From NCBI GenBank assembly GCA_964409875.1, contig CAYPEN010000002.1, positions 65,067-129,066 on the forward strand: a DNA stretch of 64,000 nucleotides, written 5' to 3'. Position numbers and translations under genes: made by a program. The notes under the pieces are model-generated. The model made no database searches. It worked only from the letters and a program-made list of their open reading frames with translations, and was not told where the DNA came from. The stretch comes from an uncultured Gammaproteobacteria bacterium. GTDB lineage: Bacteria > Patescibacteriota > Microgenomatia > Levybacterales > GWA1-39-11. Below are positions 42,291 to 63,125 of the stretch, one piece after another (position 1 is the stretch's first letter; the number at the start of each line of letters is the position of its first letter).

Positions 42291-43268
42291 TTACGAAAGA
42301 AGAGTTATCCATACAGTCATTGCAGTAGATAATTTCCGCCAATACCCTCTTTTTTTACCTAATTCTTTCGCAATTTCTAAATAACACCCTTCAATAGTAT
42401 TGGAGGTTAAGCGTATATCTTCAACTTCTCTCCACAACCATTCATTGACCGGTATACCGGTCTTCTCTTTCTCTATATTTACATCTGTATTTGATGCCCT
42501 ACTGTGCTTTACGGATGGAGCACCGGAAGTAATTGCATAACCCAAATGGTCGCAAATTTTCTTGATAAATAATCCTGCCCAGATGTCATCAAATCGGTCA
42601 TAAGGCCATTTATTTTCGTTCTTATCCTTACCCATCAGCAAAAAATACATTGCAGGCAAAATTTCCCGTCTGAAAGCCAAATTCATAGAACACATCGGAA
42701 AGTACTTCCCATACGGCACTTTTTCTACCTTTTTGAACGGTTTTGTCCTCAACTCCGGGTATTTTTTTTGTGTAATTCCATCAAGATCGGGAATATTTGA
42801 CCAAAGACCGTGATGGACCATGGTCGGCTGCCTTTTATCCCTAAACTCATATGGATATCCCCGTGGATAGATTTGATTTTCAAGCGTGTTCCACCAATAA
42901 TCACTCTGCCATTCTTTTTTTAAGCTCGTGAGAATATCTTTCATAAAACCGTTTTTGTATTGTTTCTCAGGCAAACAATCATCATCTAACGTCAGTATGT
43001 ACGTGCTCCCTTTTTGCCAAGCTTTTATGAAACCATACGATCTTACGGCTGCCGACCTGCGAGGTATAATCCAAGAATTTTTTCCTAGCTCACTTTCTAT
43101 ATCTTCCCAACTGTAATGCTGTATCCATTGAGGTAGTTTGAAGCTTTTTTGGGGGTTATCTTCAACTACAATAATTTCAAGTCCGGAAAACTCCTTTTCC
43201 CAAGCTGTTAAGAACGAATTAATTGATTGCTCACGGATGGTAGGTACAATAATTGCAATATCTTTCAT
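42291..43268 (-). CDS. Reversibly-glycosylated-polypeptide (RGP)/UDP-arabinopyranose mutase-like protein (GT75-like)
   Basis: Blocks LTLDDDCLP, HGLWSNIPDLDG, FPMCSMNLAFRREILPAMYF, RFDDIWAGLFIKKICDHLGYAITSGAPSVKHSRASN closely parallel conserved plant RGP/UAM motifs (from memory of the family). Confidence 0.6.
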   Translation of the reverse strand: MKDIAIIVPTIREQSINSFLTAWEKEFSGLEIIVVEDNPQKSFKLPQWIQHYSWEDIESELGKNSWIIPRRSAAVRSYGFIKAWQKGSTYILTLDDDCLPEKQYKNGFMKDILTSLKKEWQSDYWWNTLENQIYPRGYPYEFRDKRQPTMVHHGLWSNIPDLDGITQKKYPELRTKPFKKVEKVPYGKYFPMCSMNLAFRREILPAMYFLLMGKDKNENKWPYDRFDDIWAGLFIKKICDHLGYAITSGAPSVKHSRASNTDVNIEKEKTGIPVNEWLWREVEDIRLTSNTIEGCYLEIAKELGKKRGYWRKLSTAMTVWITLLS

Positions 43269-43357
43269 TTAGTTTCCTATCTTACTCAATTTTTGCTTGG
43301 TTTAAAAGCTTCTTTTTGAATTTGTCAAAAGTCTGCAGACGATGGTACACTTCACAC

Positions 43358-43939
43358 ATGCCAAGACTTATTGCCATTATTCTATTCATCGTCTTACTTC
43401 CCCTTTTTCCATTAATGTTTGTGCTAATAACAATTACCTCTGATGGTCCTTTTATTTTCAAACAAAAAAGAATGGGGAAAGGAAAAAAGGTATTCACAAT
43501 TTATAAACTGCGAACGATGGTGAAAGATGCTGAAAAACTAAAATCTAAATACTTACATCTGAATGAGACTGATGGTCCAGTCTTTAAAATCCGTAACGAT
43601 CCCAGATATACAAGTATTGGGAGATTTCTTGCAAGAACAGCACTTGATGAACTGCCCCAGCTCATAAATATAATTAAGGGCGAAATGGCTTTTGTGGGGC
43701 CTCGCCCCCTTCCTGTTGAAGAAGCAAGAAATGTACCTAAAAAATATGACGCCCGTTTTTCTATCCTCCCCGGGCTTACATCAACTTGGGTTATAAAAGG
43801 GTCTCACCAGCTCAAATTTGAACAATGGATGGAACTTGATTTGAAATACGTAAAGAATAAGACTTTATGGGGTGACTTTGAAATTATTCTTAAAACTTTT
43901 TTTCTCATATTTAAATCTTTAATAAATATAAGAAGGTAG
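43358..43939 (+). CDS. Polyprenyl-phosphate sugar phosphotransferase (bacterial sugar transferase, WbaP/PglC-like small form)
   Basis: Start MPRLIAI at 43358; PVFKIRNDPRYTSIGRFLARTALDELPQLINIIKGEMAFVGPRP signature. Confidence 0.85.
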   Translation: MPRLIAIILFIVLLPLFPLMFVLITITSDGPFIFKQKRMGKGKKVFTIYKLRTMVKDAEKLKSKYLHLNETDGPVFKIRNDPRYTSIGRFLARTALDELPQLINIIKGEMAFVGPRPLPVEEARNVPKKYDARFSILPGLTSTWVIKGSHQLKFEQWMELDLKYVKNKTLWGDFEIILKTFFLIFKSLINIRR

Positions 43940-43974: not shown

Positions 43975-45153
43975 ATGATCCGGTTGCTGCCTTATTTCCT
44001 CTTTTTCCTACTAGCGCTTGAGGGACTCGGAATTCCTAACGGCCGGGAACTGGCATATGCAATTCTCGTACTGGGTTCTCCAATATTTTTTATCCACACT
44101 TTTTTTCAAAAAAAAGCATTTAAAATACCCAGAACGATAACAATACTTTTCATATTATTAATTGTTTCTGCTTTTATATCTTCATTTATGGGTTTAAAAC
44201 CGCAAAATTCTCTTCAATATTCTTTTCTGTTACTGTCAATCTTTTTCCTTTTTCTCGTTGCATATAACAATCAAAAAGAACTCACAAAACCAATCATAGT
44301 AGTAATTTTTCTTTCCTCTGCGCTCTTTACTCTTTATTCAGCTCTTCTTTCCTTTCATATTAATTTCCCCCTGCCTGCAAATGGTTACCAGTTCGTATTT
44401 TCGAAATTCGGCTCGCACAACCACCTCGGCGACTTTCTGGTTCTTCCTTCAATAATTTGCCTATATTACTTATATAACCGCAAGTATGTATTACTAGCTA
44501 TTAGCTATCAGTTATTTGCTATTATTTTCATTTTTTTCTCCTACTCCCGATCTGCATACCTTTCATTAGCATTAACAACAATTTTGCTGCATTTAATGTA
44601 TTTAAAATCTAAAAACTCTTTACACACCATACTTCTATCAAGGCTTTTAATGCTCATATTAGTTCTTTCATCAGCTTTTTTTATTGTCGCAACAACCCGC
44701 CAGGCAATAACCCAACCCTTATCAAAAGAAGTAAATGAAACGCTCGTTAAAAAAGGAGGTTTAAAGCATAAAGAATTATTGGGCAATAGGCTTGAGTATA
44801 TAAGGCAATCTCTCCTCTCAGTACAAAAAAACTCAATTTTTGGCATTGGTCCTAACAATTTTTTGTTAGTTTCCAAAACGTATGCACCCAAAAAATCTTT
44901 AATTACTGAAGCTACTCACAACATTTTTCTTGAAATACTCGTAGGACAGGGAATTTTAGGGCTTTTGCCTTTTATCACTATTAACATCCTTATATTGATA
45001 AAATCCAAAAAAAATGCCCTTTATTTCGGGTTGGTGGCATTGCTTATCAATTTCCAAACAGATTATACGTACCAAATTTATTCGTTTCTTCTTCTATTTT
45101 TTGTCCTAAGTGGCGTGATTTTAGAACAACCTAACCATAATCCTAACTCGTGA
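43975..45153 (+). CDS. O-antigen ligase-like (Wzy_C) membrane protein
   Basis: Polytopic; FSYSRSAYLSLALTTILL loop typical of Wzy_C. Confidence 0.6.
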   Translation: MIRLLPYFLFFLLALEGLGIPNGRELAYAILVLGSPIFFIHTFFQKKAFKIPRTITILFILLIVSAFISSFMGLKPQNSLQYSFLLLSIFFLFLVAYNNQKELTKPIIVVIFLSSALFTLYSALLSFHINFPLPANGYQFVFSKFGSHNHLGDFLVLPSIICLYYLYNRKYVLLAISYQLFAIIFIFFSYSRSAYLSLALTTILLHLMYLKSKNSLHTILLSRLLMLILVLSSAFFIVATTRQAITQPLSKEVNETLVKKGGLKHKELLGNRLEYIRQSLLSVQKNSIFGIGPNNFLLVSKTYAPKKSLITEATHNIFLEILVGQGILGLLPFITINILILIKSKKNALYFGLVALLINFQTDYTYQIYSFLLLFFVLSGVILEQPNHNPNS

Positions 45154-45182: not shown

Positions 45183-45470
45183 ATGATGACCAAAAATTCT
45201 CCTAAAATTAAAATTATTAAAGGTTTTGTTACTCAAAGAAATGGAAAAACCGTTACTATCTTTGATGCAGAGAAGTCAATGCTCTACACTTTTAATCCGT
45301 CGGCAACTTTTATTTTCGAAAGGTTGAAAAAGGGACTGGATGCCAATAAAATTGCTTCTTTAATGATGAAAGAATTCAACATACAAGAGAAGAAAGCAAT
45401 TGATGACATCAACGATTTCATTAATACTCTGCTCGCAAAAGGACTCGCAAAAAAGGAAAAGATTGCATAA
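45183..45470 (+). CDS. PqqD-family protein (RiPP recognition element-like peptide chaperone)
   Basis: 95 aa; SMLYTFNPSATFIFERLKKGLDANKIASLMMKEFNI...AIDDINDFINTLLAKGL matches the PqqD/RRE pattern (beta-strands + LNxTA..IW..LDG..ei.....dv..fl..L...GL). Confidence 0.75.
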   Translation: MMTKNSPKIKIIKGFVTQRNGKTVTIFDAEKSMLYTFNPSATFIFERLKKGLDANKIASLMMKEFNIQEKKAIDDINDFINTLLAKGLAKKEKIA

Positions 45471-46683
45471 TAAACCTTTTTGTCTTTCTATTAATAACCC
45501 AAAGTAATGAGTACAAAATTGTACCATTAAGAAACACAAATATTTTAATCCACAATGGGTTTGGAGAAAGAGAAAATAGCACTCTAAAAAAATTACCCTC
45601 TCCTAGAATTTCTTTTTCATCAAAAATATTTGTTTTGCCAAACTTTCTTTCTACTAAATTCGCATTGCTTATTTTTCTAAGACCCTTATAAAACGGGCTT
45701 TTAATACGCTTTCTATCGTAATACTTTACATAAAGAAACAAAGCGGAATAGATGAAATTCCATAATTTATACTCCTTAATAGTGTTTAAAATTTGATAGT
45801 AATTTATTTTTTTCTTAAAGACTTCTCTCATAAATTGATATCGATACCCACCCTCAAAATTGTGATGGTAAATATGAAGAAGCAGATAGATGATTAAATT
45901 TTCAATCTTTAAAACAGGAAATTTTACCCTTTCAATCTCAATATATTCCTTTTCATATATAAACTTTTGAGATAACTTGTCTACAAGTTGTTGGGGATAC
46001 AATTTTTCCACTTTACCAATACTGGTCATTAAAAAAACTATTTCAAGATGGATATCAAATGTGACAATCAGTCCGTTGACGTTTTTGTAGAACGAAATTT
46101 CAGCCTTATCAAGCATTGTTTTTCCCGTTAGAGAAGTCGGTGTAACCATTTTGTAGCTATTATCAAAAAGGAGTTTCTTAACCTTTTTGAACTGTTTCTT
46201 ATGAATAAGAATATCGCAATCTGCATAAATTCGACTTGGATACTTTCCTTCGTATAAAAGATGCAAAGGTAGACCTTTCAGAATAACAAAGTCAATTTTA
46301 TGCTCCATAAATAAGCCTGCAATCCTTCTTATCTCATCGAAATACAAACTGGACTGCATAAGATACAGGTCCTCAACTTTATACTTATGACTTCCTCGTT
46401 GGATAGAATCGACTAAACCGATTATCCTCTCTGGTCTTATTTTCCCATCAGATAAACGGTTATTATCCCCTTTTGTTATGAGATATTTATTCGTTTTGTA
46501 CAACACCCTATGAGTAATCAAATGGCTATTTTTTTTAAAACAAACAATATCGTTAGTTTTAATTCTGTTAAAGCTAATTTTCTTAATATGAACTGTATCT
46601 TGGTCTCGAAGGATAGGGAACATAGAATTCCCAAAAGTTTTTATCTTTCCTCTCTTTACTACCTGGTTGACTAAATCTTGCAT
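45421..46683 (-). CDS. Fusion protein: N-terminal S24/S26-type serine peptidase domain + C-terminal uncharacterised nucleotidyltransferase (NTP_transf_5-like) domain
   Basis: N-term GNSMFPIL...ITKGDNN (Ser nucleophile SM motif of LexA/signal-peptidase fold); C-term FVILKGLPLHLLYEGKYPSRIYADCDILIHK matching KG..LY....R...D.D.L nucleotidyltransferase motif. Confidence 0.55.
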   Translation of the reverse strand: MQDLVNQVVKRGKIKTFGNSMFPILRDQDTVHIKKISFNRIKTNDIVCFKKNSHLITHRVLYKTNKYLITKGDNNRLSDGKIRPERIIGLVDSIQRGSHKYKVEDLYLMQSSLYFDEIRRIAGLFMEHKIDFVILKGLPLHLLYEGKYPSRIYADCDILIHKKQFKKVKKLLFDNSYKMVTPTSLTGKTMLDKAEISFYKNVNGLIVTFDIHLEIVFLMTSIGKVEKLYPQQLVDKLSQKFIYEKEYIEIERVKFPVLKIENLIIYLLLHIYHHNFEGGYRYQFMREVFKKKINYYQILNTIKEYKLWNFIYSALFLYVKYYDRKRIKSPFYKGLRKISNANLVERKFGKTNIFDEKEILGEGNFFRVLFSLSPNPLWIKIFVFLNGTILYSLLWVINRKTKRFIMQSFPFLRVLLRAEY

Positions 46684-46703
46684 CCGAGTTACTTAATAGT
46701 TAT

Positions 46704-48179
46704 TTAATATTGAAGTGATTTTAATTTTGCCTTTATATCATCGTTAAAATTTGAATCATTTTCTTCGAAGCCGTTATTTTGTTGCTCTGATATTATGAAG
46801 GGTGAAGGCAAATTATAAGGTGCTAGATGTTCATATAAAACTTGCTTTAACCTACCTGCAATTCGAGGAAGCTTATCTATCAAATTATTACTCTCATATT
46901 TATCTTTCTCAACGTTATATAACTCTTCATAATTATTCTCATGTATGCAAGACCCGGGAAGCGAATAGATATATTTATATTCGCCATCGCTTACGGAAAA
47001 CTTCGAAAGGTTGTTATTTTCTGAAAACGAATATTTCCTCCGGTTAGCTGGGAATGGATTAATAAATAAACTCCGGTTAAATAGGTAAGCAAAGCTCTGC
47101 CCGTCGAAAGCAGAATTATCTTTAATACTCATCAAATCGAGCAGTGTCGGAAGAATATCAGTGTTTTGCAACATAACATTTGAGGTCATTTTATGATCAG
47201 ATAATGGATCGTAGATTATAAGCGGAATCTTTATGGCAGAATCGTATAGAACAGTTCTGTGGTCAAAATAATAATTGTGGTCAAATCCTTCTCCATGATC
47301 CCCATAGATAACAACTATTGTGTTCTTTAAGACCCCGATTTTTTTAAGAGTATTTAATATTTCTCCTGTTATCCGGTCAGCCGAAGCAACTCCACCATCG
47401 TAGAGATTTTCCATAAGCCCAATCCTTTCTTTGGGCACCGTTCTATTTTGACATTTTTGATACTCACCACGTAATCGTTCCAGGTCTTCCAAGCTTTTTC
47501 CGCTGATTTGTGAGCAATATTTAGAGTTAAACTTACAACGTAAATCATCAGGAGGATAATAAGGTGCATGTACATCCATTAAATGAATCCAGGTAAAGAA
47601 TTTAGTATTATGGTTTTTTTCCAACCAGCCTGAAGCTTGTCTTATAAAAGACTCATAGTCTGCCCTACTACTTTGCCTGAATTGTTCATTCCCACTTTTA
47701 TCGAATTGAAAATACTTGAATATGTGAAAATGAAAATCATCAATCCCCTGGTCAAGAGGCTCACCTGTGATAAATGCAGCTGTCTTATATCCGGCTGTTT
47801 TTAACTCCGTTGCCAGTGTCTTAGTATTCCAACTTATACCAGAAAAGCTATTATTCAAAATTCTGGTCTTTAAAGGATCGTAACCTGTCATAAGAGAAAT
47901 AAATGAAGGGTGTGTCATGGGAACTGTAGTTGAAACGTTAGTGAATACTTTTGCGTTATTCGAAAAATTATCTATGTTTGGGGTTGTTTTTTTTTCGTAT
48001 CCATAGACCCCCATATGATCAGGTCTTAATGTGTCAATCGATATTATGACAAGATTGAGGTCTTTTGCCCGTTTGACAATATAAATCTGTCTTCCAAATT
48101 CGAAGGCGGTATAGGATAGAATCAGAATTATTATTACAAGAAAAAGTTTTTTTGATATTAATTTTTTTAATTTCTTCAT
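46704..48179 (-). CDS. Sulfatase-like alkaline-phosphatase-superfamily enzyme (membrane anchored)
   Basis: LVIISIDTLRPDHMGVYGY...PNIDNFS...TTVPMTHPS core; start codon overlaps upstream stop (translational coupling). Confidence 0.7.
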   Translation of the reverse strand: MKKLKKLISKKLFLVIIILILSYTAFEFGRQIYIVKRAKDLNLVIISIDTLRPDHMGVYGYEKKTTPNIDNFSNNAKVFTNVSTTVPMTHPSFISLMTGYDPLKTRILNNSFSGISWNTKTLATELKTAGYKTAAFITGEPLDQGIDDFHFHIFKYFQFDKSGNEQFRQSSRADYESFIRQASGWLEKNHNTKFFTWIHLMDVHAPYYPPDDLRCKFNSKYCSQISGKSLEDLERLRGEYQKCQNRTVPKERIGLMENLYDGGVASADRITGEILNTLKKIGVLKNTIVVIYGDHGEGFDHNYYFDHRTVLYDSAIKIPLIIYDPLSDHKMTSNVMLQNTDILPTLLDLMSIKDNSAFDGQSFAYLFNRSLFINPFPANRRKYSFSENNNLSKFSVSDGEYKYIYSLPGSCIHENNYEELYNVEKDKYESNNLIDKLPRIAGRLKQVLYEHLAPYNLPSPFIISEQQNNGFEENDSNFNDDIKAKLKSLQY

Positions 48180-48652
48180 AATGACTTAATAATAAGGTAA
48201 TTAGCTGCTGCATTTTTCTCATAAAGGTTTGCAGTTTCTTTTATTGTCACATTGTCATTTTTTGTAAGTGACCCAAATGGGATATTATTCCCAAAATTGT
48301 CTATAACGCTTACTTCATGACTGTTATCGGGTGTCAGTAAAAACTGTTTCCTATTGCCATTTTTCTCGATTGTTATCCTTTTTGTTTTTGTATCCATATT
48401 TTCAGTAATATTAAAAATAGAACCTTCATAAACATTTATCAATGTAGATGTAGTCAAAGTACTTTTAGAGGAATAGAAAAAATTAAATAAGACAGACGAA
48501 CTGTAAGGAAGGTAAAATGTTTTGACCTCTCGAGGATTTTTCAACATAAAAGAATTGATATGTGGTTTTTCGTGGATAAAAATAAAAAATTCCAGAATAC
48601 AAAATGCAGTCAAAAAAAACGCAAGATAGGAGAGATTAATCTTATTTTTCAT
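48176..48652 (-). CDS. Small membrane-anchored hypothetical protein, translationally coupled between SagB-like and sulfatase-like genes
   Basis: N-terminal TM; 1-nt overlap with SagB-like stop and 4-nt overlap with sulfatase-like start. Confidence 0.4.
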   Translation of the reverse strand: MKNKINLSYLAFFLTAFCILEFFIFIHEKPHINSFMLKNPREVKTFYLPYSSSVLFNFFYSSKSTLTTSTLINVYEGSIFNITENMDTKTKRITIEKNGNRKQFLLTPDNSHEVSVIDNFGNNIPFGSLTKNDNVTIKETANLYEKNAAANYLIIKSL

Positions 48653-49428
48653 TATCCTAGAGCTACCACTTCAAGAACAGTCTCGGAAAACCCATCTATA
48701 TCAAGATAGTTATTCAGTTTATCATCTACATAGCCTCCGATAGCACAGCATGCTATATTTTGTGAGGCGGATATTAAATAAATATTCTGCAGCATGCAAC
48801 CTGCCTCGGTAAGCACATGTCTATATCCCCTATTTCCATATTTCGTAGTATTTCTGATAAAAACGCCGGTTATAATTAATAATGCGGATGCTTTATATAC
48901 CCACTCCTGGCCTTTGAAAGATTCTACCACAACATCACTATTAAACTCCCCGACAAGCTCAAGCGAGTTATTCTTGACATAATAATGATAAAGGCCTTGA
49001 GGAATTTCCGAATTCATACTGATGAAATAGACCTCCAACGGATATCTTGCTCCTGCAGAGGGATAAAATCTTGCACCTGTTCGGTTATCTTTAATACCGG
49101 CAGAAAAATAAAGCAGATTGCTTATCCGTTCGGTTGTTAGTACTTGACTAAATTCCCTTCGGGATTCTCTTTTTTCCAAAAATTCAGAAAGAACTTTCTG
49201 TTCAAGTACGGGCTTTGGAAGTATAGTTTCGGGCAAACGAGCATAGCCTTTATAGAAAATCTTGATCCATTCAGTTGGCCATTCGCTTCTATTGATTTCT
49301 TTCTTATATTTTTTTATCTTTGTCAGGTTATGGAATTTTTCGAAAGGCTGCATCGGTTCTTTCAAAAGTTCATTCACATCGATATCGTCTTTTTTTAATA
49401 CCTTTGAGTCTGGACGTGTACTCACCAT
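48652..49428 (-). CDS. SagB-type (McbC-like) FMN-dependent dehydrogenase of azoline-forming RiPP pathways
   Basis: Nitroreductase-fold motifs RESRREF, YPSAGARYP, RGYRHVLTEAGCMLQNIYL, ACCAIGGY. Confidence 0.85.
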   Translation of the reverse strand: MVSTRPDSKVLKKDDIDVNELLKEPMQPFEKFHNLTKIKKYKKEINRSEWPTEWIKIFYKGYARLPETILPKPVLEQKVLSEFLEKRESRREFSQVLTTERISNLLYFSAGIKDNRTGARFYPSAGARYPLEVYFISMNSEIPQGLYHYYVKNNSLELVGEFNSDVVVESFKGQEWVYKASALLIITGVFIRNTTKYGNRGYRHVLTEAGCMLQNIYLISASQNIACCAIGGYVDDKLNNYLDIDGFSETVLEVVALG

Positions 49429-49466
49429 GATGTTAAAATATAGCAGATTCCAAGGGATTGTAAAGA

Positions 49467-50261
49467 ATGGATGAATTTTATGTGTCTATTGCGGGTTTTT
49501 TAATCAGGTTGCTTTTTAAGAAAGATGATCGGAAAAATAACCAACAGGAAATTATTATCTACAAACTCCAAACTGAGATTCTCCATACTCTAGCAGGGTT
49601 TGTGTCTGTTGTTACTAGAAATCCTGACTTTACAATTACCATCTCAGAGACCAAGGATGTTGAACGCATCAAGAGGAAGTCGGATCAACATAATTTTATC
49701 TACCAGTATCACAGAATTGATGACAGAAGAGCTTGTGGAAATTACCAAATGAGCATCTGGCATTTTCAATCGATGCTTGCAGACATTTTATATTTTCTGC
49801 TTTCTGAAAACGATGGATTTGGCATACACTGTTCCTCGGTCTATTCTGGAAATAAAGCATATCTATTCTTGGGAAATTCTGGTGCCGGAAAATCTACTAT
49901 AGCAAATCTTCTGAATGGTTATTTCCAGCACTTTACGGACGACATCGCATTTGTTAGAAAGATTGATAAGAAGTATTATCTCTATCAATCACCCTTTCTT
50001 GAGAAGGAAAACAATATTAAATTTCCCTATGGATATGAGATCTCACAAGTCTTCTTCCTGCATAAAAGCAACACGACATGCATCAAAAGGTTAAAGCAAA
50101 ACAAGATTGTAACAAGATTGACAAGACAAGTGCTATCAGACGGTAACTTACCCAAAAATATCCGTAAGACAGTGGAACAATTCGCTTCGCAGGATGTTTT
50201 CAGTGAACTTTACTTTGAAAAAGACCCACAAAAATTGAATGATGTATTGAGGAGGATTTAG
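49467..50261 (+). CDS. HPr-kinase C-terminal-domain-like P-loop protein (HprK-related kinase)
   Basis: GIHCSSVYSGNKAYLFLGNSGAGKSTIANLLNGYFQHFTDD parallels HprK hGVlv...G.GvLi.G.SG.GKSE.AleL...G..liaDD. Confidence 0.65.
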   Translation: MDEFYVSIAGFLIRLLFKKDDRKNNQQEIIIYKLQTEILHTLAGFVSVVTRNPDFTITISETKDVERIKRKSDQHNFIYQYHRIDDRRACGNYQMSIWHFQSMLADILYFLLSENDGFGIHCSSVYSGNKAYLFLGNSGAGKSTIANLLNGYFQHFTDDIAFVRKIDKKYYLYQSPFLEKENNIKFPYGYEISQVFFLHKSNTTCIKRLKQNKIVTRLTRQVLSDGNLPKNIRKTVEQFASQDVFSELYFEKDPQKLNDVLRRI

Positions 50262-50271
50262 TTGAAATATT

Positions 50272-50469
50272 CTAATGGCACATTGCACCGCATGGTCCTG
50301 TAGGAAAGCACATAGCACCCGAGGTTCCAGAACAAGATCCGTAAGTAATAGCGTATACATTCGGGATGATTGAATTGTATGAGTCATTAAACCTGCCGTT
50401 TGCCATGAATTGATTGATTTTAATCTTCTTAATCTTTATTGAAGGTTTTATGTATTTTTTTGAACCCAT
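50272..50469 (-). CDS. RiPP precursor peptide (TOMM/LAP-like): Lys-rich leader + C-terminal core SCSGTSGAMCFPTGPCGAMCH
   Basis: 65 aa (or 44 aa from internal Met); core contains 4 Cys, 3 Ser, 2 Thr, 5 Gly in 21 residues; lies 63 bp downstream of YcaO on same strand; TATAAT 8 nt upstream of ATG. Confidence 0.7.
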   Translation of the reverse strand: MGSKKYIKPSIKIKKIKINQFMANGRFNDSYNSIIPNVYAITYGSCSGTSGAMCFPTGPCGAMCH

Positions 50470-50532
50470 ATGTTGTTAAAGCATTATACCCATAATACAG
50501 AATCTTCACCCGGTGGTCAAATTGAGTATCCC

Positions 50533-51801
50533 CTATAAGAAGGGATGAGGGATTTGATTTATTTTCACATTTTCAGCTCTAAAGAAATCAGCAACCTGCT
50601 TAAGCCTTTTCCTGTTAACAAATTTCTTTTGTTTTTCAAACAGGTATAGAGGTTGTAAGTTAGGAATTAAAATTTTATATGTTACATAATTAATTTTTTT
50701 TAACTGTCTGGCACTTATATCAGCACAAAATATTTCATACCCTTTTTGGCTCAATATTTTTACAACATGCTCTAATTCTTCTTTTTCCGATCCCTGAAAT
50801 TTTGTCATTCTTTTTTTCGATGGTTTTTGTGAAAATAGAAAATCAAGCTTGTCAATCGCCTCAACCGGCCACCAGTAAAATCCACGTTCATGCAGCTCCT
50901 TCATGAACTTGCCCTCGTTTTTAACTTTTTCGCCATTTAATGACGATAGTTTTGCAGCTCTCATGATACTTCTTACCATAAAAGATTCATCAATACTTCC
51001 TTTTATCGCATTTATGCAATTGAAACCCGCTTTCGCCCCTACCGATACAGCGGGGCCAAGTCCAGTCCTGTCAACCAGTATCGATATGAACGATGGGATG
51101 CCCAAATCATTGGTGGCATCAAATATAGATAGCTCCAAATTATACCGTTTAATCGACTTTAAAACAGACAAAAGATCTTTATCTTTTTGTTCATTAATAT
51201 CAATCATAGGTAGCCGTATGGAATTTAAATACGCACAAACAAAAGCGTCTCTCTCAATTACTTCGTAAATACCTCTTAATACTGATGACTCGAAGTTAAA
51301 GCCTCCAGCTGCACCTGTACTTACGAGAGGATATCTATAATCTATTTCCTTTCTGGACGATTTATAATTTAGATAGACAAGCTTTGCAGGAATAACGGTA
51401 GTATTTTTTTTCATAAGATTAATCCCCTCGATATAGCTGACTAATCCATTTTCTCTTATTACCGGAGAAAAAGCTGACAATGGAAATTTGCGATGAAGCC
51501 AGTTGTCGGCTTTTATGTGTTTGACCTTTTTTTCCTTGTAAGATGACAGAGAATAGCGTTCTATAGTCTCACCTAAACATTTCAGAAGAGCGATTTCTCG
51601 GTTGGAAAGCGACACGCCACTTGCACCTAATTCTTTATCGAGATAACCGTCAGTGTGTTTTTGGCTAAGTGCTAGCTTTGCGAAGTAATAATAGAACCTC
51701 GGATCATCATTGAAATATTTTGCTTCACCTATTGACTCCAAAATCCCTAGATCCAATAAACTATCGAGCATTTTTTCCATAGTATTTCTCATATTATTCA
51801 T
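50533..51801 (-). CDS. YcaO-domain cyclodehydratase (SagD-like)
   Basis: CLGETIERYS, STGAAGG (ATP-binding), EVIERDA, and C-terminal proline-rich PHPFL terminus typical of azoline-forming YcaOs. Confidence 0.9.
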   Translation of the reverse strand: MNNMRNTMEKMLDSLLDLGILESIGEAKYFNDDPRFYYYFAKLALSQKHTDGYLDKELGASGVSLSNREIALLKCLGETIERYSLSSYKEKKVKHIKADNWLHRKFPLSAFSPVIRENGLVSYIEGINLMKKNTTVIPAKLVYLNYKSSRKEIDYRYPLVSTGAAGGFNFESSVLRGIYEVIERDAFVCAYLNSIRLPMIDINEQKDKDLLSVLKSIKRYNLELSIFDATNDLGIPSFISILVDRTGLGPAVSVGAKAGFNCINAIKGSIDESFMVRSIMRAAKLSSLNGEKVKNEGKFMKELHERGFYWWPVEAIDKLDFLFSQKPSKKRMTKFQGSEKEELEHVVKILSQKGYEIFCADISARQLKKINYVTYKILIPNLQPLYLFEKQKKFVNRKRLKQVADFFRAENVKINQIPHPFL

Positions 51802-51863
51802 CCTTATTAGACTAGAAAAACATATTAGGAGAATATGTATCTTTATGCAAGGGTCAAGAGGGG

Positions 51864-52451
51864 TTAAATTCGAGTTATAGTCAATTCATTTAAAAAGTCC
51901 GGGTATCTTTTCATTAATGATGTGTTAATTTTTATTATTACTTTATCTCCGGGTTTCAAGTCATTAACTTTAATAGGTATATCATTTCCGGCCTTTTTTT
52001 CAAAAACGTGCACTCTATTCATGTATTTACCTCCCACATAATATGGAACTTTATAAGAATCCTTTAAGGATGGGTCATCATAATTTAAAGTAATGGAAAA
52101 TGCATATGGTGCATTTAATCTGGGAGCAATTCCACCCTTCACATCAACGTCTCCAATATAACCCTCATATTCGAGCACCGAATAAGCTTGGTGTAATTTT
52201 TTAAAATCGGATAGTTTTTGTAAAAGAGTTGTCCGCGAAGAATAGATTTTTAATTGTTGATCGTAACTTGTCCCATTATTATCTTGGGTCTGGTGCCATG
52301 GTAAATATGAAGCTATATGAATGACCCCAAATCGGTCCAATACAAAAATTGCAATTGCAATCACACTTAATATCACTAAAACTTCATATATCAAGGCCCT
52401 TACCCCTACCGCTCTTTTCCTGGTTTCGCTTTGCATACTAAAGTTTTCCAT
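51864..52451 (-). CDS. Membrane-anchored hypothetical protein (paralog B of tandem pair)
   Basis: N-terminal TM; C-terminal DLKPGDKVIIKINTSLMKRYPDFLNELTITRI shared with neighbour. Confidence 0.5.
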   Translation of the reverse strand: MENFSMQSETRKRAVGVRALIYEVLVILSVIAIAIFVLDRFGVIHIASYLPWHQTQDNNGTSYDQQLKIYSSRTTLLQKLSDFKKLHQAYSVLEYEGYIGDVDVKGGIAPRLNAPYAFSITLNYDDPSLKDSYKVPYYVGGKYMNRVHVFEKKAGNDIPIKVNDLKPGDKVIIKINTSLMKRYPDFLNELTITRI

Positions 52452-52452
52452 A

Positions 52453-53046
52453 TTATTGTTTGGTAATTAAAACTTGGTTGATATTATTGGGATAGGCACG
52501 AAGAGTTCCTGTATTCGTCCTAACTGTTACTTTATCACCGACCCTCAGATCTTTCAAACTTATCACCTTTTTCAAAGAATCTACAACCTTTATCTTATCC
52601 ATTGCTAATGTAGGATAAAGAAGTGTTGCACTTTCTGAACCCTTACCTACTCCTACTACTAACTTTGCACTTATAGAAGCTTTCGTTGCGGTATCCACTT
52701 CAGGGTTCAAATCTATTGTTATTATTTTCCCTTCAAATTCACTGATATTTTGAGCCATATGTAAAGCTTTATTTCTAGAAACAATATTTAAGTCTGGCTG
52801 GGCTGGATTTAGCTTGATATAATTTTGTTTCTGACTTAGCCTCTGATTGTCGAATGAATTAGGCTTTATTTTTGCATTTTGACTAGGTTGGAAATTAGGT
52901 TTTCGTGCAAAAAGAGCATATATATCTATGATCTTCAAAAAATTGAGCATAAAAATAACAATGCTTGTCAAAATAAGGATTATTGCAATCTCAATTATTG
53001 CAGCTTTCAAAATCCCGAAAGTTGTTGTCGAAGTATTATTTTCCAC
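52453..53046 (-). CDS. Membrane-anchored hypothetical protein (paralog A of tandem pair)
   Basis: N-terminal TM; C-terminal LKDLRVGDKVTVRTNTGTLRAYPNNINQVLITKQ; stop abuts start of paralog B. Confidence 0.5.
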   Translation of the reverse strand: MENNTSTTTFGILKAAIIEIAIILILTSIVIFMLNFLKIIDIYALFARKPNFQPSQNAKIKPNSFDNQRLSQKQNYIKLNPAQPDLNIVSRNKALHMAQNISEFEGKIITIDLNPEVDTATKASISAKLVVGVGKGSESATLLYPTLAMDKIKVVDSLKKVISLKDLRVGDKVTVRTNTGTLRAYPNNINQVLITKQ

Positions 53047-53119: not shown

Positions 53120-53554
53120 GTGTTAGGCTGGAATATAATGAAACGCAAACAACAAGCAATGCTTATCCGCATTTTCTTTAGCATAGTTATATTATCAGTC
53201 CTCGCTATATTAGTTATTCCCAAAAATAATTCCACACAACCCCCTCAGCAAAAAAGCTTGATGCTATCCAAAAAAACAATAGTTGTACATTCCATTACTC
53301 TTACCTCAAGAGGTTTTGAGCCCTCAAAAATTACTATCAAAAAAGGGGAAATTGTAAGATGGACCAATCATAGCGGTAAGACGGGAAGTGTCAATTCTGC
53401 CGAACACCCTACTCATATGCTTTATCCGTTTTTAAATTTAGGACAATTTGATAATAATTCAAGTGTTCAAGCAACAATTTATCGGACTGGTGAACTTCGC
53501 TACGTCAACCATTATATCCCTTCCCAAAGGGGAACAATTATCGTAACCGAATAA
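53120..53554 (+). CDS. Membrane-anchored small beta-domain protein, possibly cupredoxin-like fold without Cys ligand
   Basis: N-terminal TM; ITIKKGEIVRWTNHSG...H...H pattern but no cysteine. Confidence 0.35.
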   Translation: MLGWNIMKRKQQAMLIRIFFSIVILSVLAILVIPKNNSTQPPQQKSLMLSKKTIVVHSITLTSRGFEPSKITIKKGEIVRWTNHSGKTGSVNSAEHPTHMLYPFLNLGQFDNNSSVQATIYRTGELRYVNHYIPSQRGTIIVTE

Positions 53555-53557: not shown

Positions 53558-55606
53558 CTACCGCAGAACTCCTACTAACTTTAGCACGTAAGGCATGACT
53601 TGGGTTATTTGAGGCTTTTTAAAACCCAATTTTCTATTTGAGAGCAATACGCCGGGTACTTCGGTCGGGTCAAAAAGGTGATCCCCGCTCCATTTATAAG
53701 TTCTCTTTGTTATCACATCAGGAGTTGTCGCCCCTATCGCGCTGTCCCAGGATGAGCGCGTTCCTTTATAAAAACCTAAAATCAGATCAGGTGCGTAGTT
53801 ATCATCGGGTGAAACACCCATCTCTTCTCTTGTATAAACGTGCTTCATTATCTTATCTCCCGTTTGAGGATTTATCTCATCCATTAATTTTTGAATGATC
53901 TCTTTTTGTAACTCTCGTATATCTTTAGGATGAACTGATCCTTCTTCTTCGCGTCCTGAAATATTGAAAAACACACTGTTGTATCCTGCAGCATACGCTT
54001 TCGTCTTGCTCCAATCGACAGAATCATATAATGGTCCGGATTCATTTGCTCCCTCTCTTAATACCAAATAACCATTCTTGACCAAGAAAGTATTAACGTT
54101 CATTTCGTAATCAAATGAATAAAACCCATGATCGGAAAGTATCAGGAAAGTCGTATCCTTATCCATTTTTGCAATGGTCTGCCCTACTATCTCATCCATT
54201 TTTTCATAATACTGGTTTATCGTGTCATGATATGGACTGTTTTGATCTTTTAAAAATCGCCAGAACATATGAGAAATTGTATCCGGCATGCCAAAATAGG
54301 CAAAAAGGATTCCGTTGTTGTAAGAGGCAAGCTTTGAGTAATAAATTTTCTTTCTTTCGGCAAGAATTGAATCTGCTTGCTTAAGGAAAGCCTTTTCATC
54401 AAACACGTTCTCTTCCAAAGCCCAGGTGTCATGCGGAAGACCCAAAGTTGAGTACAACCCAAGCTCCTTTGAGAGTTTTGCAGAAAATCCTTTCGGTGCA
54501 GAAATAGGTTTTAAAGGTGTTTCAGGGTCAAAATTAATGGGTGACATATACAACTCAATGTCGGGAGATACACTTTTGAGGTAAAACTTGGCTATCCCTT
54601 TAACTTTTGTAAAGAAGTCTATGCCAAATTCCAAACGTTTCCAATCGGAAAACTCCCCTTTAGCAATTTTGAAAGTTTGCTTTTGAACGCTAATTTCAAC
54701 AGAAGAATCCTTAATAACCTTAATGGTAAGCGGAACTGTTGCTACTTTTGTATCGTTACCGCCATTATATTTTGGTCCCTCTATATTTGTATCTATTGTC
54801 TTTTTATATGAAACGGGAATTACTTTTCCCCTCCAGGTATAATCATTGGTCGGATACTTTCTTGTAGTAAAAAGCGTAAATGTTCCCTGAGTTCCAAGGA
54901 CATCGGGTACCCCCATTCCTGCAATCATCTCGCCAGTCAGTGATTTTGGCGGCTCGAAAGTATCGGGCAAAAATAAAACGGTAACTGGAACTTTGTTTGC
55001 GGTTGTCTTTTCCCAAAAAGGAGTTGCATGAAGTGTCGTTGTATTTTTGTCGTTGCCTGAAAAGACTAAATTTAGGCCGTAATTTGCAGGATCCCGCTCA
55101 ATAAAGTCATATACTCCGTGCTGTGAAGGATTCTCCCCAGTTATAAAACTCGCCCATGCAACTGGGGACTGAGGCGGAACAACCGTTGCAAGAGGAGAGA
55201 AATAGCCCGTATCTTTAAGTTTTTTTAAATTTTTAAACCTTCCATTTTTCCACCCTTCTTCAAGAATATTTGGGTCCATTCCGTCAAAACCCAATATGAT
55301 TACTTTTTTTGTTTGCTTGGTGCCCAACAGAGACATACCCCCAATTATACCAGCGAATAAAACAAGCAAAATAAGAACAACAATAACGCTCTTTTTTCTG
55401 AAAAACGGGAATATTTTATATCTTAAATAGAATAAGCTCGAACCCAAAGCTCCCAGTATAACAGCAAGAAAAATTGGAATATTTGAACCCAATACGTATC
55501 CTGACCCAGGGTCTATATAGTTTAAAATCAATTGTGGATTTGAAAGAAGGGTTGCTGTGTACTGCAATTGCACCTCGCTTGCTGCTATTTGACAAAGAGC
55601 GCACAT
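53558..55606 (-). CDS. Type I phosphodiesterase/nucleotide pyrophosphatase family (alkaline phosphatase superfamily) membrane-anchored protein
   Basis: VIILGFDGMDPNILEE...ATVVPPQSPVAWASFITG motif block; N-terminal TMs. Confidence 0.75.
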   Translation of the reverse strand: MCALCQIAASEVQLQYTATLLSNPQLILNYIDPGSGYVLGSNIPIFLAVILGALGSSLFYLRYKIFPFFRKKSVIVVLILLVLFAGIIGGMSLLGTKQTKKVIILGFDGMDPNILEEGWKNGRFKNLKKLKDTGYFSPLATVVPPQSPVAWASFITGENPSQHGVYDFIERDPANYGLNLVFSGNDKNTTTLHATPFWEKTTANKVPVTVLFLPDTFEPPKSLTGEMIAGMGVPDVLGTQGTFTLFTTRKYPTNDYTWRGKVIPVSYKKTIDTNIEGPKYNGGNDTKVATVPLTIKVIKDSSVEISVQKQTFKIAKGEFSDWKRLEFGIDFFTKVKGIAKFYLKSVSPDIELYMSPINFDPETPLKPISAPKGFSAKLSKELGLYSTLGLPHDTWALEENVFDEKAFLKQADSILAERKKIYYSKLASYNNGILFAYFGMPDTISHMFWRFLKDQNSPYHDTINQYYEKMDEIVGQTIAKMDKDTTFLILSDHGFYSFDYEMNVNTFLVKNGYLVLREGANESGPLYDSVDWSKTKAYAAGYNSVFFNISGREEEGSVHPKDIRELQKEIIQKLMDEINPQTGDKIMKHVYTREEMGVSPDDNYAPDLILGFYKGTRSSWDSAIGATTPDVITKRTYKWSGDHLFDPTEVPGVLLSNRKLGFKKPQITQVMPYVLKLVGVLR

Positions 55607-55632: not shown

Positions 55633-56301
55633 ATGACCCTTCAGGATAAAATTGCCAAAACCAAGCAGATTTTAAAACAGGCTGAGAAGAAGTATGGCTT
55701 CAAAGATATTGCCCTTGCCTGGAAAGGTGGAAAAGACACAACAACCCTTATGCATATCATCCTGACTCTATATAATGGCGTTATTCCGTACAAGGTTATG
55801 TTCAATGACACGACAATAGAATTTCCGCAAATGTATAAATTCATTGAAAAAGTTGCCCACCAATGGAATTTGAATTTAATAATAGAGAAACATTCAGATA
55901 GTGACCTTGCAAACTACAAAAAAGCCCGCGGAATGGCCTTAAAGGAAGAAATCTCACGGCTCGCAAAAATCAATTCACTCAACAGAGCGTTGGAAAAGTA
56001 TAAATTAAAAGGTTATATGCTGGGAATACGCCGTGACGAAAACCCAGCAAGGAAAAATGAAAAATACTTCTCTCCTCGTCCAAACCACATAAGAATTCAC
56101 CCGTTACTTGAATTTACCGAGGAAGACGTGTGGGCATATATCCGTCTTTTCAACGTCCCTTACTCACCACTCTATGATAAAGGCTACCGCTCAATAGGCG
56201 AAAAACCTTTTACAAAAAAATCCTCGGGTGATGAGCGTTCCGGACGGGAACAAAATAAGGAAAAAATGATGGAAAAATTACGACAAATGGGATATTGGTG
56301 A
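55633..56301 (+). CDS. PAPS-reductase-family PP-loop protein lacking C-terminal catalytic Cys
   Basis: ALAWKGGKDTTTLMHI PP-loop; LGIRRDENPAR; C-terminal YRSIGEKPFT has no Cys in place of the CysH Cys motif. Confidence 0.7.
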   Translation: MTLQDKIAKTKQILKQAEKKYGFKDIALAWKGGKDTTTLMHIILTLYNGVIPYKVMFNDTTIEFPQMYKFIEKVAHQWNLNLIIEKHSDSDLANYKKARGMALKEEISRLAKINSLNRALEKYKLKGYMLGIRRDENPARKNEKYFSPRPNHIRIHPLLEFTEEDVWAYIRLFNVPYSPLYDKGYRSIGEKPFTKKSSGDERSGREQNKEKMMEKLRQMGYW

Positions 56302-56302: not shown

Positions 56303-57949
56303 TTACTTAATAAGTTTTTCCACCTTCAAAAACTTTAAAATTTCTCCCACACATACTTTAACGCTATGGTTTGTGGTATCAAGTATAATTTCAGGTGCAA
56401 GAGGCTTTTCGTAAGGGTCGTCTATTCCTGTTAAATTCTTAATCAAACCCATCTCAGCCTTTTTATACAGTCCTTTCGTATCCCTTTTTTTACATACGGA
56501 AAGTGGCGTTGAAACATATGCTTCGGCAAAAGTCCCAACCTGGGAAACAATTTCTCTCACCTCATCCCGCACCTTTCTATACGGCGCAATCGCCGCAACG
56601 ATTACTACCCCCTGGTGTTTTACGATTTCACCTGCAACAAACCCAATACGCCGAATGTTCTCGTCCCTATCATCCCTTGAAAACCCGAGGCCTTTTGTCA
56701 AATGTTTTCTAATAATATCCCCGTCAAGAAGCGTAACCGGCTTGTTGTACCTATCCATAAGCACTAACGATAGACTTTTTGCAACTGTTGATTTGCCTGC
56801 ACCTGAAAGACCGGTCAGAAAGACACAAAAACCCTTTTGCCTTTTAACTCTTCTCTTGAGGATTTTAATAACAGGTGGAAAAGAAAACCATTCCGGAACT
56901 TTTTCGTCTTCTCTTAACATCTTTCGAAATTGCGTCCCGGAAATCCGCTTGATGGCTTTCGCATCTTTGTTTTTGGCTGAAACTTCAACATATTGCTTGT
57001 TCTTTTCATCGTAAGCCATCTCGTTAAATTCAATAATTTTTATTCCAATCTCTCTGGCGTATTTTTGCGCAAGCTTTTGGGCATCGTAAGGCTCATAGAA
57101 AAGATTACCGTGACTATCTGTTCCGGGATCTGCATGGGACCGTCCGACAATAAAATGTGTACAACCATAGTTTTTACGGATAATTGCGTGCAGGATAGCC
57201 TCTCTTGGTCCTGCCATTCGCATCGCTAATGGCAATAGGCTAAGGGTAGAAAAATCCTTGGCGTATTTTCTTTGAATGATTTTGTAGCATTTAACTCTAG
57301 TTATATAGTCGATATCTCCGTCTTTCGTCTCCCCCACCGAAGGATGGATAAGAGCGTGTGCTTTTTCTTTTTCTGCAGCCTTCTTTATCATCCAGAAGTG
57401 AGCCTGATGAATAGGATTTCTTGTTTGAAATCCAATTACTTTCTTCCATCCTCTTTTCTTAAAATATTTCTTTAACTGCTGGGGTGTCTTTCTTAAATTC
57501 TTATAATCGTAGTGCTCAATAGAGCCCAATTTTTCAACTTTTCCACCAAGATAGTACTCATTTGTCCTTTCAAACAGATATTTGACTCCAAAATGTTCTT
57601 TTGAATCGGTTCCATACACCATTTGTGCTTCCTTTTTCTTGTCCGGCTTGTAGATAGACTCAACATGAAGTGTTGCAACCGGCTTTTCGGAAAGGTCGCA
57701 AAGTAGTACTTTTTGTCCAACATTAAAACCAGCTAATCCCTCTACATCCAAAACGATAGGAATTGGCCATAGAATGCCGTTTGAAAGGCGCATTTGGCTT
57801 ACAACAGAGCGGTAGTCGTCTTCGTTAAGAAATCCTGTCAAGGGGGCAAATCCGCCGTTTAGAATCAATTCTAAATCACAAAGCTGGCGGGTAGACAGAA
57901 AGATTTTAGAAAGAAAAGCCTCTGATGCTTCTTTCTGTAACATATTCAT
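56303..57949 (-). CDS. sat/cysC: Bifunctional sulfate adenylyltransferase (ATP sulfurylase)/adenylylsulfate kinase
   Basis: N-domain QTRNPIHQAHF and GRSHADPG motifs; C-domain Walker A LTGLSGAGKSTVAKSL of APS kinase. Confidence 0.9.
   Translation of the reverse strand: MNMLQKEASEAFLSKIFLSTRQLCDLELILNGGFAPLTGFLNEDDYRSVVSQMRLSNGILWPIPIVLDVEGLAGFNVGQKVLLCDLSEKPVATLHVESIYKPDKKKEAQMVYGTDSKEHFGVKYLFERTNEYYLGGKVEKLGSIEHYDYKNLRKTPQQLKKYFKKRGWKKVIGFQTRNPIHQAHFWMIKKAAEKEKAHALIHPSVGETKDGDIDYITRVKCYKIIQRKYAKDFSTLSLLPLAMRMAGPREAILHAIIRKNYGCTHFIVGRSHADPGTDSHGNLFYEPYDAQKLAQKYAREIGIKIIEFNEMAYDEKNKQYVEVSAKNKDAKAIKRISGTQFRKMLREDEKVPEWFSFPPVIKILKRRVKRQKGFCVFLTGLSGAGKSTVAKSLSLVLMDRYNKPVTLLDGDIIRKHLTKGLGFSRDDRDENIRRIGFVAGEIVKHQGVVIVAAIAPYRKVRDEVREIVSQVGTFAEAYVSTPLSVCKKRDTKGLYKKAEMGLIKNLTGIDDPYEKPLAPEIILDTTNHSVKVCVGEILKFLKVEKLIK

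Positions 57950-59857: not shown

Positions 59858-63125
<3,268 letters not shown>

Follow-up and report, generated by a model that had tools for sequence, protein, structure and literature searches.

The 64-kb stretch of DNA analysed here (contig CAYPEN010000002.1; hereafter the window) harbours between positions 45183 and 53046 a compact gene cluster, in which a YcaO cyclodehydratase, a SagB-type dehydrogenase and a Cys/Ser/Thr-rich precursor peptide lie together with a discrete PqqD-family protein, an HprK-like P-loop protein and a fusion of a signal-peptidase-like domain to a nucleotidyltransferase (NTase) domain. We consider it likely that this locus is a hybrid cluster for a peptide that is made ribosomally and then modified post-translationally (RiPP), in which a maturation chassis of the Candidate Phyla Radiation (CPR), similar to that of the 'linear polyphosphorylated peptide' (LPP) clusters, has received an added YcaO/SagB azole pair. 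The reading is built on gene identities, motifs and catalytic residues, folds, co-occurrence, the motifs common to leaders and junctions, and the fact that an E1-like partner is absent, and all its enzymology is drawn from analogy and sequence. The host is a CPR/Patescibacteria bacterium. Since the nearest named relatives of the YcaO are Candidatus Levybacteria and other Patescibacteria, and since the 23S gene in the 23S/5S rRNA operon of the window is over-long, the 'reduced low-GC genome' of a previous interpretation made from the letters alone (the sequence-only reading) is a CPR genome. All open reading frames (ORFs) named in that reading were recovered at their positions in an ORF check of the window; it had overlooked that the conserved neighbourhood reaches upstream to position 43253.

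The YcaO/SagB pair and its companions

The YcaO, SagB, PqqD and NTP_transf_5 families assigned in the sequence-only reading held in profile searches (Table 1). Among the NCBIfam models the YcaO was nearest to SagD (TIGR03604), with 177.7 bits and a curated cutoff of 219.25, and the residues E77/E80 and E179/E182/R183 of its glutamate motifs (ExxER) were invariant. The CPR-specific YcaO clade ends in PHPFL, whereas the E1-partnered relatives in loci L021 and L023 end in PHPFP. SagB directly follows YcaO, usually with overlapping genes, in 22 of 24 CPR loci, and the SagB motifs RfyPSaG and K196-Y197 are kept in at least 90% of 28 homologues. With the glutamate motifs conserved in YcaO, and RfyPSaG and Lys-Tyr in SagB, both enzymes look active. 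Pfam and NCBIfam scans found no TfuA or sulfur-transfer gene among the scanned neighbours of YcaO.

Azoline-forming YcaOs are generally taken to depend on a partner of the E1-like or Ocin-ThiF-like type. A set of 80 genome loci with YcaO relatives was retrieved. In those from outside the CPR, the next ORF upstream of YcaO is SagC/E1-like, and all ten that were tested matched TIGR03603 (nine of them also TIGR03882). An E1/SagC profile built from these ten verified SagC-type neighbours of non-CPR YcaO genes picked up the partner, either as a protein of its own or in fused form, in over 50 loci from outside the CPR, which is almost every non-CPR relative. With the same profile no partner was found in the six-frame translation of the window, where none had been recognised earlier either, nor in about 100 CPR loci. 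The sole CPR matches to it were PqqD ORFs at sub-threshold E-values of 0.05-0.7, as expected if PqqD corresponds to the RiPP recognition element (RRE) part of the C protein. The best NCBIfam matches of the PqqD protein itself were lasso-type PqqD chaperones, all sub-threshold, and its top match in the PDB was the lasso protein TfuB1 (weak, E = 0.18). That the separately encoded PqqD supplies the leader-binding function, as had been suggested earlier, is now the best-supported idea, the leader containing a YxxP motif that PqqD probably recognises.

By sequence, the HprK-like protein gave weak P-loop and ScmC matches only. Since it and the fusion protein returned P-loop-only matches or none in PDB sequence searches, their folds were compared, using confident models built from alignments of database homologues (predicted local distance difference test scores of 89 and 88). 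The model of the HprK-like protein adopts the HprK/PEPCK fold, in keeping with its earlier description. It retains an intact Walker A motif together with invariant His, Ser and Asp, as is typical of active kinases. The precomputed Pfam label PF27840 is attached to 16 of 16 database homologues of this protein.

The earlier proposal of an S24/S26 peptidase fused to a nucleotidyltransferase was likewise borne out by folds. The N-terminal domain of the modelled fusion matched SipA, E. coli signal peptidase I, SEC11A and LexA, and the C-terminal domain matched the nucleotidyltransferases MenT1, LnuA and ANT(2''). By profile, the N-terminal domain scored 49.9 bits against TIGR02228 (cutoff 51.85). 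Among 30 homologues of the fusion, H57, D78 and the NTase residues D154/D156 are invariant, and G17, S19, R58, D72 and N73 are conserved in at least 90% (motifs GxSMxP, HR and GDN). The set S19/H57/D78/D72 parallels S29/H68/D93 of LppS, the leader peptidase of LPP clusters. The N-terminal domain is predicted to be a leader peptidase analogous to LppS, and the C-terminal domain a nucleotidyltransferase analogous to LppN. A HMMER search of 1.84 billion representative sequences placed 203 clusters in the fusion family at E ≤ 1e-30, and because nearly all of the best 150 listed span both domains, the fusion forms a discrete, sizeable family.

The company kept by these genes was followed from two sides. 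Twenty-four YcaO-anchored CPR loci were searched with the window proteins, their ORFs were clustered and profile searches were run; as the reverse test, which proved decisive, the fusion protein served as anchor in metagenome contigs, and the 39 peptidase-anchored loci with a length of at least 8 kb were counted. The YcaO-anchored loci contained the HprK-like gene in 13, the peptidase-NTase fusion in 10, PqqD in 8 and the precursor in 15 of the 24 cases. The peptidase-anchored loci contained PqqD in 30 of 39, the HprK-like gene also in 30 and a small membrane protein of the family described below (D/I/J) in 31, and only about 28% carried YcaO/SagB (YcaO in 11, SagB in 10). The order and orientation in which PqqD, the HprK-like gene and the fusion accompany YcaO/SagB vary widely; locus L144, for example, has an operon in the order HprK-like, PqqD, YcaO, SagB, and a second PqqD beside the peptidase. 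These three form the core that is conserved in a large CPR system, mostly found without YcaO, and YcaO/SagB is an optional add-on to this widespread module, since YcaO is found in only 11 of the 39 peptidase-anchored loci.

Two further observations concern the distribution of these genes. The closest named relative, a Levybacteria locus (L001), retains a 37-residue fragment of the peptidase-NTase only (L001:16618-16791), and PqqD was not found in the locus; the fragment could reflect decay of the peptidase/PqqD part or its relocation. A second type of CPR YcaO-SagB locus was seen in L012, L016, L017, L019, L020 and L028 (YcaO match at about 10001-11300 in each). In place of the PqqD/HprK/peptidase set, loci of this type have a kinase of the APH family (PF01636) and a histidine phosphatase (PF00300). 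Their precursors are unrelated (e.g. ...CGSCSSCASCGC...) and lie upstream of YcaO or downstream of SagB; here too, no E1-like partner was found with the E1/SagC profile.

The precursor family and its leader

The 65-aa precursor ORF matched no Pfam or NCBIfam family. With a leader profile, 42 sources, the window among them, yielded 44 matches to small ORFs at E < 0.01, corresponding to 39 unique sequences from about 40 loci. Because of these homologues the ORF is taken as a real gene and not a chance ORF, and the conserved N-terminal KKYxKPxIK motif confirms its upstream start. The earlier choice of this ORF as a Cys/Ser/Thr-rich precursor next to YcaO was thus sound: the family is conserved, and 10 of the 25 residues of the predicted core are Cys, Ser or Thr.

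The leaders share the N-terminus (K)KYxKPxIKxKKIKxNxF, followed by ...φφA↓core. YxxPx[IVLF] is present in 38 of the 39 unique precursors. A φ-φ-Ala junction about 35-40 residues in, ahead of a hypervariable C-terminus, was recognised by eye in 37 of 39, the other two having Ser for Ala; an automatic hmmalign tally put Ala at position −1 in 20 of 36, with several junctions misplaced by local alignment. With a small residue at −1 and a hydrophobic one at −3, the junction fits an S26-type site. For the window this pattern predicts a leader of 40 aa ending in V38-Y39-A40 and a core of 25 aa, ITYGSCSGTSGAMCFPTGPCGAMCH. About a quarter of the homologues have 'QS' directly after the junction, which resembles the AQS of LppA.

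Most YcaO-linked cores are rich in Cys, Ser and Thr flanked by small residues. Some Cys-rich cores occur in loci without YcaO, and a Cys-rich core was rejected as a predictor of YcaO, such cores being present in the long YcaO-less loci L122, L105, L131 and L146. At the other end of the range, the family includes cores of 4-9 residues, among them tiny predicted cores of only 4-7 residues with one Ser each (VQISAV, KRISPV, SIAR, TFKS, VWAVSI), encoded at L133:8679-8834, L108:1963-2115, L153:1778-1927, L089:146-271 and L148:570-719. Their loci carry PqqD, the HprK-like gene and the peptidase-NTase, without YcaO, and these precursors are candidates for minute phosphorylated or decorated peptides. 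The same leader is also fused to larger domains. In L092:4837-5397(+) and L030:12726-13304(-) a PT-HINT (Hint/intein-like) domain starts a few residues past the predicted cleavage site, and a Hint domain placed directly behind a stub of 5 residues could transfer that stub or set it free. In L137:714-1280(+) a Peptidase_S74 'chaperone of endosialidase' domain is found behind a Cys-rich stretch.

Membrane proteins and the surrounding genes

Table 1. Features of the locus and its conserved upstream flank, with positions in the window.
Feature	Position	Strand	Evidence or motif
Bac_transf small polyprenyl-phosphate sugar-phosphate transferase, part of the surrounding glycan locus	43253..43939	+	PF02397 E=1.7e-56
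Wzy_C (O-antigen ligase/polymerase-like) membrane protein	43975..45153	+	PF04932 E=1.5e-18
Discrete PqqD-family RRE, 95 aa, LppB/lasso-B1 analogue	45183..45470	+	PF05402 E=1.6e-11
Signal-peptidase/NTase fusion, 420 aa	45421..46683	-	C-terminal NTP_transf_5 PF14907 E=1.3e-20; N-terminal archaeal/SipW-type signal peptidase I-like
Membrane-anchored alkaline-phosphatase/'sulfatase'-fold protein, Thr nucleophile	46704..48179	-	PF00884 E=1.9e-46
Member 'D' of D/I/J family, more divergent, directly after SagB	48176..48652	-	profile E=1.9e-22
SagB-type FMN-dependent azoline dehydrogenase, 258 aa	48652..49428	-	TIGR03605 125.3 bits, cutoff 78.4
HprK/PEPCK-fold P-loop protein, 264 aa, predicted peptide Ser kinase (LppK/PadeK analogue)	49467..50261	+	fold and P-loop
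Precursor peptide, 65 aa	50272..50469	-	ORF; 63 nt downstream of YcaO; leader-HMM family
Predicted core, precursor aa 41-65	50275-50349	-	ITYGSCSGTSGAMCFPTGPCGAMCH; 25 aa, 4 Cys, 3 Ser, 3 Thr
Leader, precursor aa 1-40	50350-50469	-	MGSKKYIKPSIKIKKIKINQFMANGRFNDSYNSIIPNVYA
Y6-x-x-P9-x-I11 leader motif, predicted RRE (PqqD) recognition sequence	50437..50454	-	YxxPx[IVLF] conservation
YcaO-family ATP-dependent cyclodehydratase, 422 aa	50533..51801	-	PF02624 E=1.5e-39
Member 'I' of single-pass membrane-protein family	51864..52451	-	iterative profile search; LKPGDKVII motif
Member 'J' of same D/I/J membrane-protein family	52453..53046	-	43% identical to L001, L002 counterparts

Three membrane proteins of the locus belong to one family, a kinship overlooked in the sequence-only reading. 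The D/I/J proteins are about 170-210 aa long, with an N-terminus predicted to be inside and an LKPGDKVxI motif, and were found in 56 sources including the window; the proteins at the D position in L001, L002, L004 and L008 are also members. They matched no Pfam or NCBIfam family, and a relationship to DUF4330 was rejected (hhalign probability 0.5%). Of 44 precursor genes, 31 have a D/I/J gene as their next neighbour upstream, in many cases with an overlap, and in the window, L001 and L002 the YcaO gene sits between the two. Our guess is that the family is a cognate immunity or export partner.

The protein at 46704-48179 was rejected as a true sulfatase. It has a Thr at the nucleophile position, and in all homologues the motif pMTHPSF is present and C/SxPxR is lacking; these residues make an extracytoplasmic phosphoesterase or phosphotransferase more likely than a sulfatase. 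A role such as unmasking of a phosphorylated pro-peptide is speculative. The recurrence of this companion had also been overlooked, and it is frequent without being universal (7 of 24 YcaO-anchored CPR loci, 4 of 39 peptidase-anchored).

The window from 34 to 46 kb is a glycan locus in which Pfam and NCBIfam scans identified DUF4330, two Wzy_C, GT2, WecG, RGP and Bac_transf. Bac_transf is found in 19 of the 39 peptidase-anchored loci, typically adjoining PqqD or the HprK-like gene and often in the same operon, and the Wzy_C neighbour recurs in 16 of 39. The DUF4330 protein (34306-35112, +) recurs in about 30 related loci (FAM11), mostly near Bac_transf, and probably belongs to the glycan locus and not to the peptide pathway.

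On the other side of the cluster are a cupredoxin-like protein of 144 aa (53120-53554, +), also found by the locus in L001, L002, L007, L013, L082 and L092, and a membrane type-I phosphodiesterase/nucleotide pyrophosphatase of 682 aa (53558-55606, -), which recurs in L024 and L082. Sulfur-activation genes follow, namely one for a protein with a PAPS_reduct domain (55633-56301) and one for a fusion of ATP-sulfurylase and APS-kinase (56303-57949). Proteins of the PAPS_reduct family occur again next to the HprK-like gene or YcaO in L009, L011 and L024, and an arylsulfotransferase (ASST) family protein recurs in L002, L008 and L025. Paeninodin-type lasso clusters carry a sulfotransferase (PMC8498205), and peptide sulfation is a possibility in such loci.

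Elsewhere in the window, ORFs across 302-1012, 2674-6837 and 16453-21565 encode a leucine-rich repeat (LRR) protein, a 1387-aa RCC1-repeat protein and two large proteins (566 and 1147 aa) without Pfam match. A local GC peak at 14000-16000 (0.50, and 0.30-0.45 elsewhere) contains long overlapping ORFs on opposite strands, 14125-15057(-) and 14149-15036(+). The 23S rRNA gene (59859-63126, -) measures 3268 nt against a model of 2925 positions, and so carries about 340 nt of insertions; rRNA gene insertions of this type are known from CPR. A promoter/terminator scan found a TTGACC-17-TATTAT site in the 63-nt gap between YcaO and the precursor, which was not used as evidence because the site counts overall were not above the shuffled expectation.

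Relation to known systems and weighing of the readings

The sequence-only reading had held that such loci are rarely reported and that the accessory enzymes match no characterised pathway. Neither statement stands. Sharrar et al. 2020 described clusters for linear azol(in)e-containing peptides (LAPs) in CPR, consisting of YcaO, nitroreductase, peptidase and precursor, and counted 110 of these in 93 CPR genomes; the partner question and the accessory genes were not analysed there (PMC7298704). The accessory set matches the LPP gene clusters, which have been called Bacillota-restricted (Popov et al., Nat Commun 2026, PMC13381572). In these, LppB is a discrete RRE and the HprK-like kinase LppK polyphosphorylates Ser3 of the core (PMC13381572). 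LppS is an archaeal/SipW-type, RRE-dependent leader peptidase with S29/H68/D93, for which F-3, E-2 and T-1 of the leader are important and which contacts the RRE-leader sheet through its N-terminal helix; the NTP transferase LppN and an MsbA-like pump complete the set (PMC13381572). LPP precursors of 35-200 aa have a YxxPxVL...FET|AQS leader and variable C-termini, and the clusters sit inside capsular polysaccharide loci, with a biofilm role suggested (PMC13381572). The motif [Y/W]xxPx[LVIAF] is bound by the discrete RREs of both lasso and LPP systems (PMC13381572). The LPP paper makes no mention of YcaO, azoles or CPR (PMC13381572).

The window shares with LPP clusters the discrete PqqD-type RRE, the YxxPx(V/I) leader, precursors with a conserved N-terminus and variable C-terminus, the HprK-like kinase, the PF14907-type NTP transferase, the SipW-type leader peptidase with its Ser/His/Asp set and N-terminal helix, and the polysaccharide-locus setting; the likeness to LppS, LppB and LppK was judged from published descriptions. 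Unlike in LPP clusters, the peptidase and NTase of the window are joined in a single polypeptide, and the leader, which is longer and very basic (KKYxKPxIKxKKIK), has φφA at its end instead of FET. In addition, each precursor is coupled to a small membrane protein, the host belongs to the CPR, and YcaO and SagB have been added.

As regards the LAP or thiazole/oxazole-modified microcin (TOMM) systems (the BCD synthetases of streptolysin S, microcin B17 and plantazolicin), the YcaO nearest to SagD, the SagB dehydrogenase, the adjacent Cys/Ser/Thr-rich precursor and a peptidase are held in common. The earlier assignment to the TOMM/LAP type therefore stands for YcaO, SagB and precursor, but the set is not canonical, since the C/F partner was searched for and not found in the window. 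No E1-like (SagC) or Ocin-ThiF-like protein accompanies the YcaO, the leader is presumably recognised in trans by the lasso-type PqqD, the YcaO ends in PHPFL rather than PHPFP with a SagD score below cutoff, and kinase and NTase tailoring enzymes are present.

In paeninodin/pseudomycoidin-type lasso clusters a discrete B1 RRE recognises a [Y/W]xxP leader, an HPr-kinase homologue phosphorylates a precursor Ser, and the phosphate receives a hexose from a nucleotidyltransferase, which in some cases is fused to the leader peptidase (PMC8498205). A discrete RRE with such a leader, an HPr-kinase homologue and an NTase-peptidase fusion recur in the window, whose leader peptidase differs in being serine S26-type and whose product is presumably linear. 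Membership among the lasso peptides was rejected, as neither an Asn-synthetase-like cyclase nor a B2 transglutaminase-like protease was found among 40 ORFs scanned across the window. Membership in the NCBIfam 'HPr-rel-A'/SynChlorMet systems was also rejected (TIGR04353, TIGR04248 and TIGR04249 (ScmC) gave 20, 32.6 and 29.2 bits with cutoffs of 35, 100 and 125), the locus being related to these in theme only. In NHLP/Nif11-type precursors one shared leader family is used with different maturases. The conserved leader on very diverse cores and the differing tailoring enzymes, here with or without YcaO/SagB, recall that arrangement, although the leader sequence and the recognition protein are other ones and the peptidase is S26-like instead of a C39-ABC protein. 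A literature search found no paper on YcaO together with HPr kinase, PqqD and NTase and nothing relevant on PF14907, and two RRE genome-mining papers described no discrete-RRE-dependent YcaO. The gene combination, the pairing of a discrete RRE with YcaO and the CPR-wide leader family are absent from the searchable literature, LAPs in CPR having been known in 2020 and LPP chemistry in 2026.

The pathway may be depicted as follows. The 65-aa precursor would be bound by the discrete PqqD at Y6xxP9xI11 of the basic 40-aa leader, and PqqD would present it in turn to the modifying enzymes, in place of the RRE of an E1-like C protein. YcaO with ATP would cyclodehydrate Cys, and possibly Ser/Thr, of the core to azolines, which SagB would oxidise to azoles. 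Like LppK, which acts on Ser3, the HprK-fold kinase would phosphorylate a Ser close to the N-terminal end of the core, and the nucleotidyltransferase domain may decorate or extend that phosphate. The signal-peptidase-like domain of the fusion would then cut off the leader after V38-Y39-A40 in an RRE-dependent manner. The D/I/J proteins, the Thr-nucleophile phosphoesterase-like protein and the glycan genes would act at or outside the membrane, possibly in immunity, export, unmasking or glycan linkage.

Several points weigh against this hybrid pathway. The SagD score of the YcaO stays under the curated cutoff, the PxPxP motif of azoline-forming YcaOs is altered at its C-terminus, and an E1-like gene could lie elsewhere in the genome, outside the window. 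The long-flank YcaO loci L014 and L001 have HprK-like genes and neither PqqD nor an intact peptidase within 10 kb, so that PqqD may not be an obligatory YcaO partner, or may be encoded elsewhere. Sequence-level evidence for the kinase is weak, and its putative assignment rests on fold and P-loop. The core of the window begins with ITYGS, without the 'QS' after the junction, and the Ser to be phosphorylated is thus not pinpointed. LPP clusters have an MsbA-like pump, whereas the scan of ORFs across the window turned up no MsbA-like/ABC exporter; ABC exporters are found in a minority of the related loci (FAM6).

The altered PHPFL terminus, the sub-cutoff SagD score and the lack of a detected E1-like partner would also suit a YcaO that makes no azoles, performing thioamide or amidine chemistry or being inactive without its partner, with the SagB-like protein in a structural or other redox role. 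Partner-independent YcaOs with other chemistry are known, as in bottromycin. We regard this as unlikely, as the scanned neighbours included neither a TfuA nor a sulfur-transfer gene, SagD is the nearest model, SagB is nearly always translationally coupled to YcaO with its FMN and Lys-Tyr motifs kept, and most YcaO-linked cores are rich in Cys/Ser/Thr beside small residues. An ordinary stand-alone LAP/TOMM, in which only YcaO and SagB (with some peptidase) act and the PqqD, HprK-like, NTase and membrane proteins are glycan-locus neighbours by synteny, would agree with the published composition of CPR LAP clusters (PMC7298704), with the embedding of the locus in glycan genes and with the 8 of 24 CPR YcaO-SagB loci that lack the whole PqqD/HprK/peptidase trio. 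Those eight have a different precursor family and different neighbours, however, whereas the trio and the precursor family co-occur in many orders and orientations and the same leader is found in YcaO-less loci; moreover, PqqD is a dedicated peptide-binding domain and the leader has its YxxP motif. We find such a stand-alone system very improbable.

It could also be the HprK-fold protein, and not PqqD, that activates or recruits YcaO, as a new class of partner with phosphorylation secondary or absent. It is the commonest companion of YcaO in the YcaO-anchored CPR loci (13 of 24, PqqD in 8), it often adjoins YcaO directly (L005, L014, L030, L141, L144 and the window), and L014 has two HprK-like genes, YcaO and SagB without PqqD within 10 kb. 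The intact Walker A and the invariant His/Ser/Asp, however, speak for a kinase, the LPP and lasso homologues are proven Ser kinases, and the gene is equally common in loci without YcaO (30 of 39 peptidase-anchored), which together make this improbable. A wider question is whether the products are envelope-associated or signalling peptides, phospho-glycosylated or attached to glycan through the Bac_transf, Wzy_C and phosphoesterase-like proteins, and not diffusible antibiotics. Bac_transf and Wzy_C often share one operon with PqqD and the HprK-like gene, LPP and paeninodin clusters are also in capsule loci with a suggested biofilm role (PMC13381572), the cargo spans 4-aa cores to Hint and S74 domains, and most loci are without a dedicated exporter. 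The basis for this is co-localisation, though, with glycan genes absent from about half of the loci, and the pairing of precursor and membrane protein resembles bacteriocin-immunity pairs; we hold it to be rather unlikely.

Taking the hybrid reading one step further, we tentatively propose, as something less than an even prospect, that in CPR bacteria the place of the E1-like C protein is taken by a discrete RRE of the lasso/LPP type, possibly jointly with the HprK-fold protein, which would make a third kind of partner for an azoline-forming YcaO. The product would then be a new hybrid RiPP class of phosphorylated and/or decorated linear azole peptides, and KKYxKPxIK...φφA would be the address tag of a CPR-wide system, with cargo ranging from 4-residue peptides to Hint proteins and a dedicated membrane protein for each precursor. 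The precursor, leader motif, cleavage site and enzyme set make the hypothesis testable by heterologous expression. If true, a lineage using a stand-alone RRE would change the mining and engineering rules for azoline-forming YcaOs, and the LPP machinery would extend from Bacillota to CPR, as a modular chassis open to additional tailoring enzymes. The genomes of CPR bacteria, which are uncultured episymbionts, are minimal, and their keeping of a system of more than ten genes, the fusion alone comprising about 200 clusters at 50% identity, suggests a role toward hosts or competitors.

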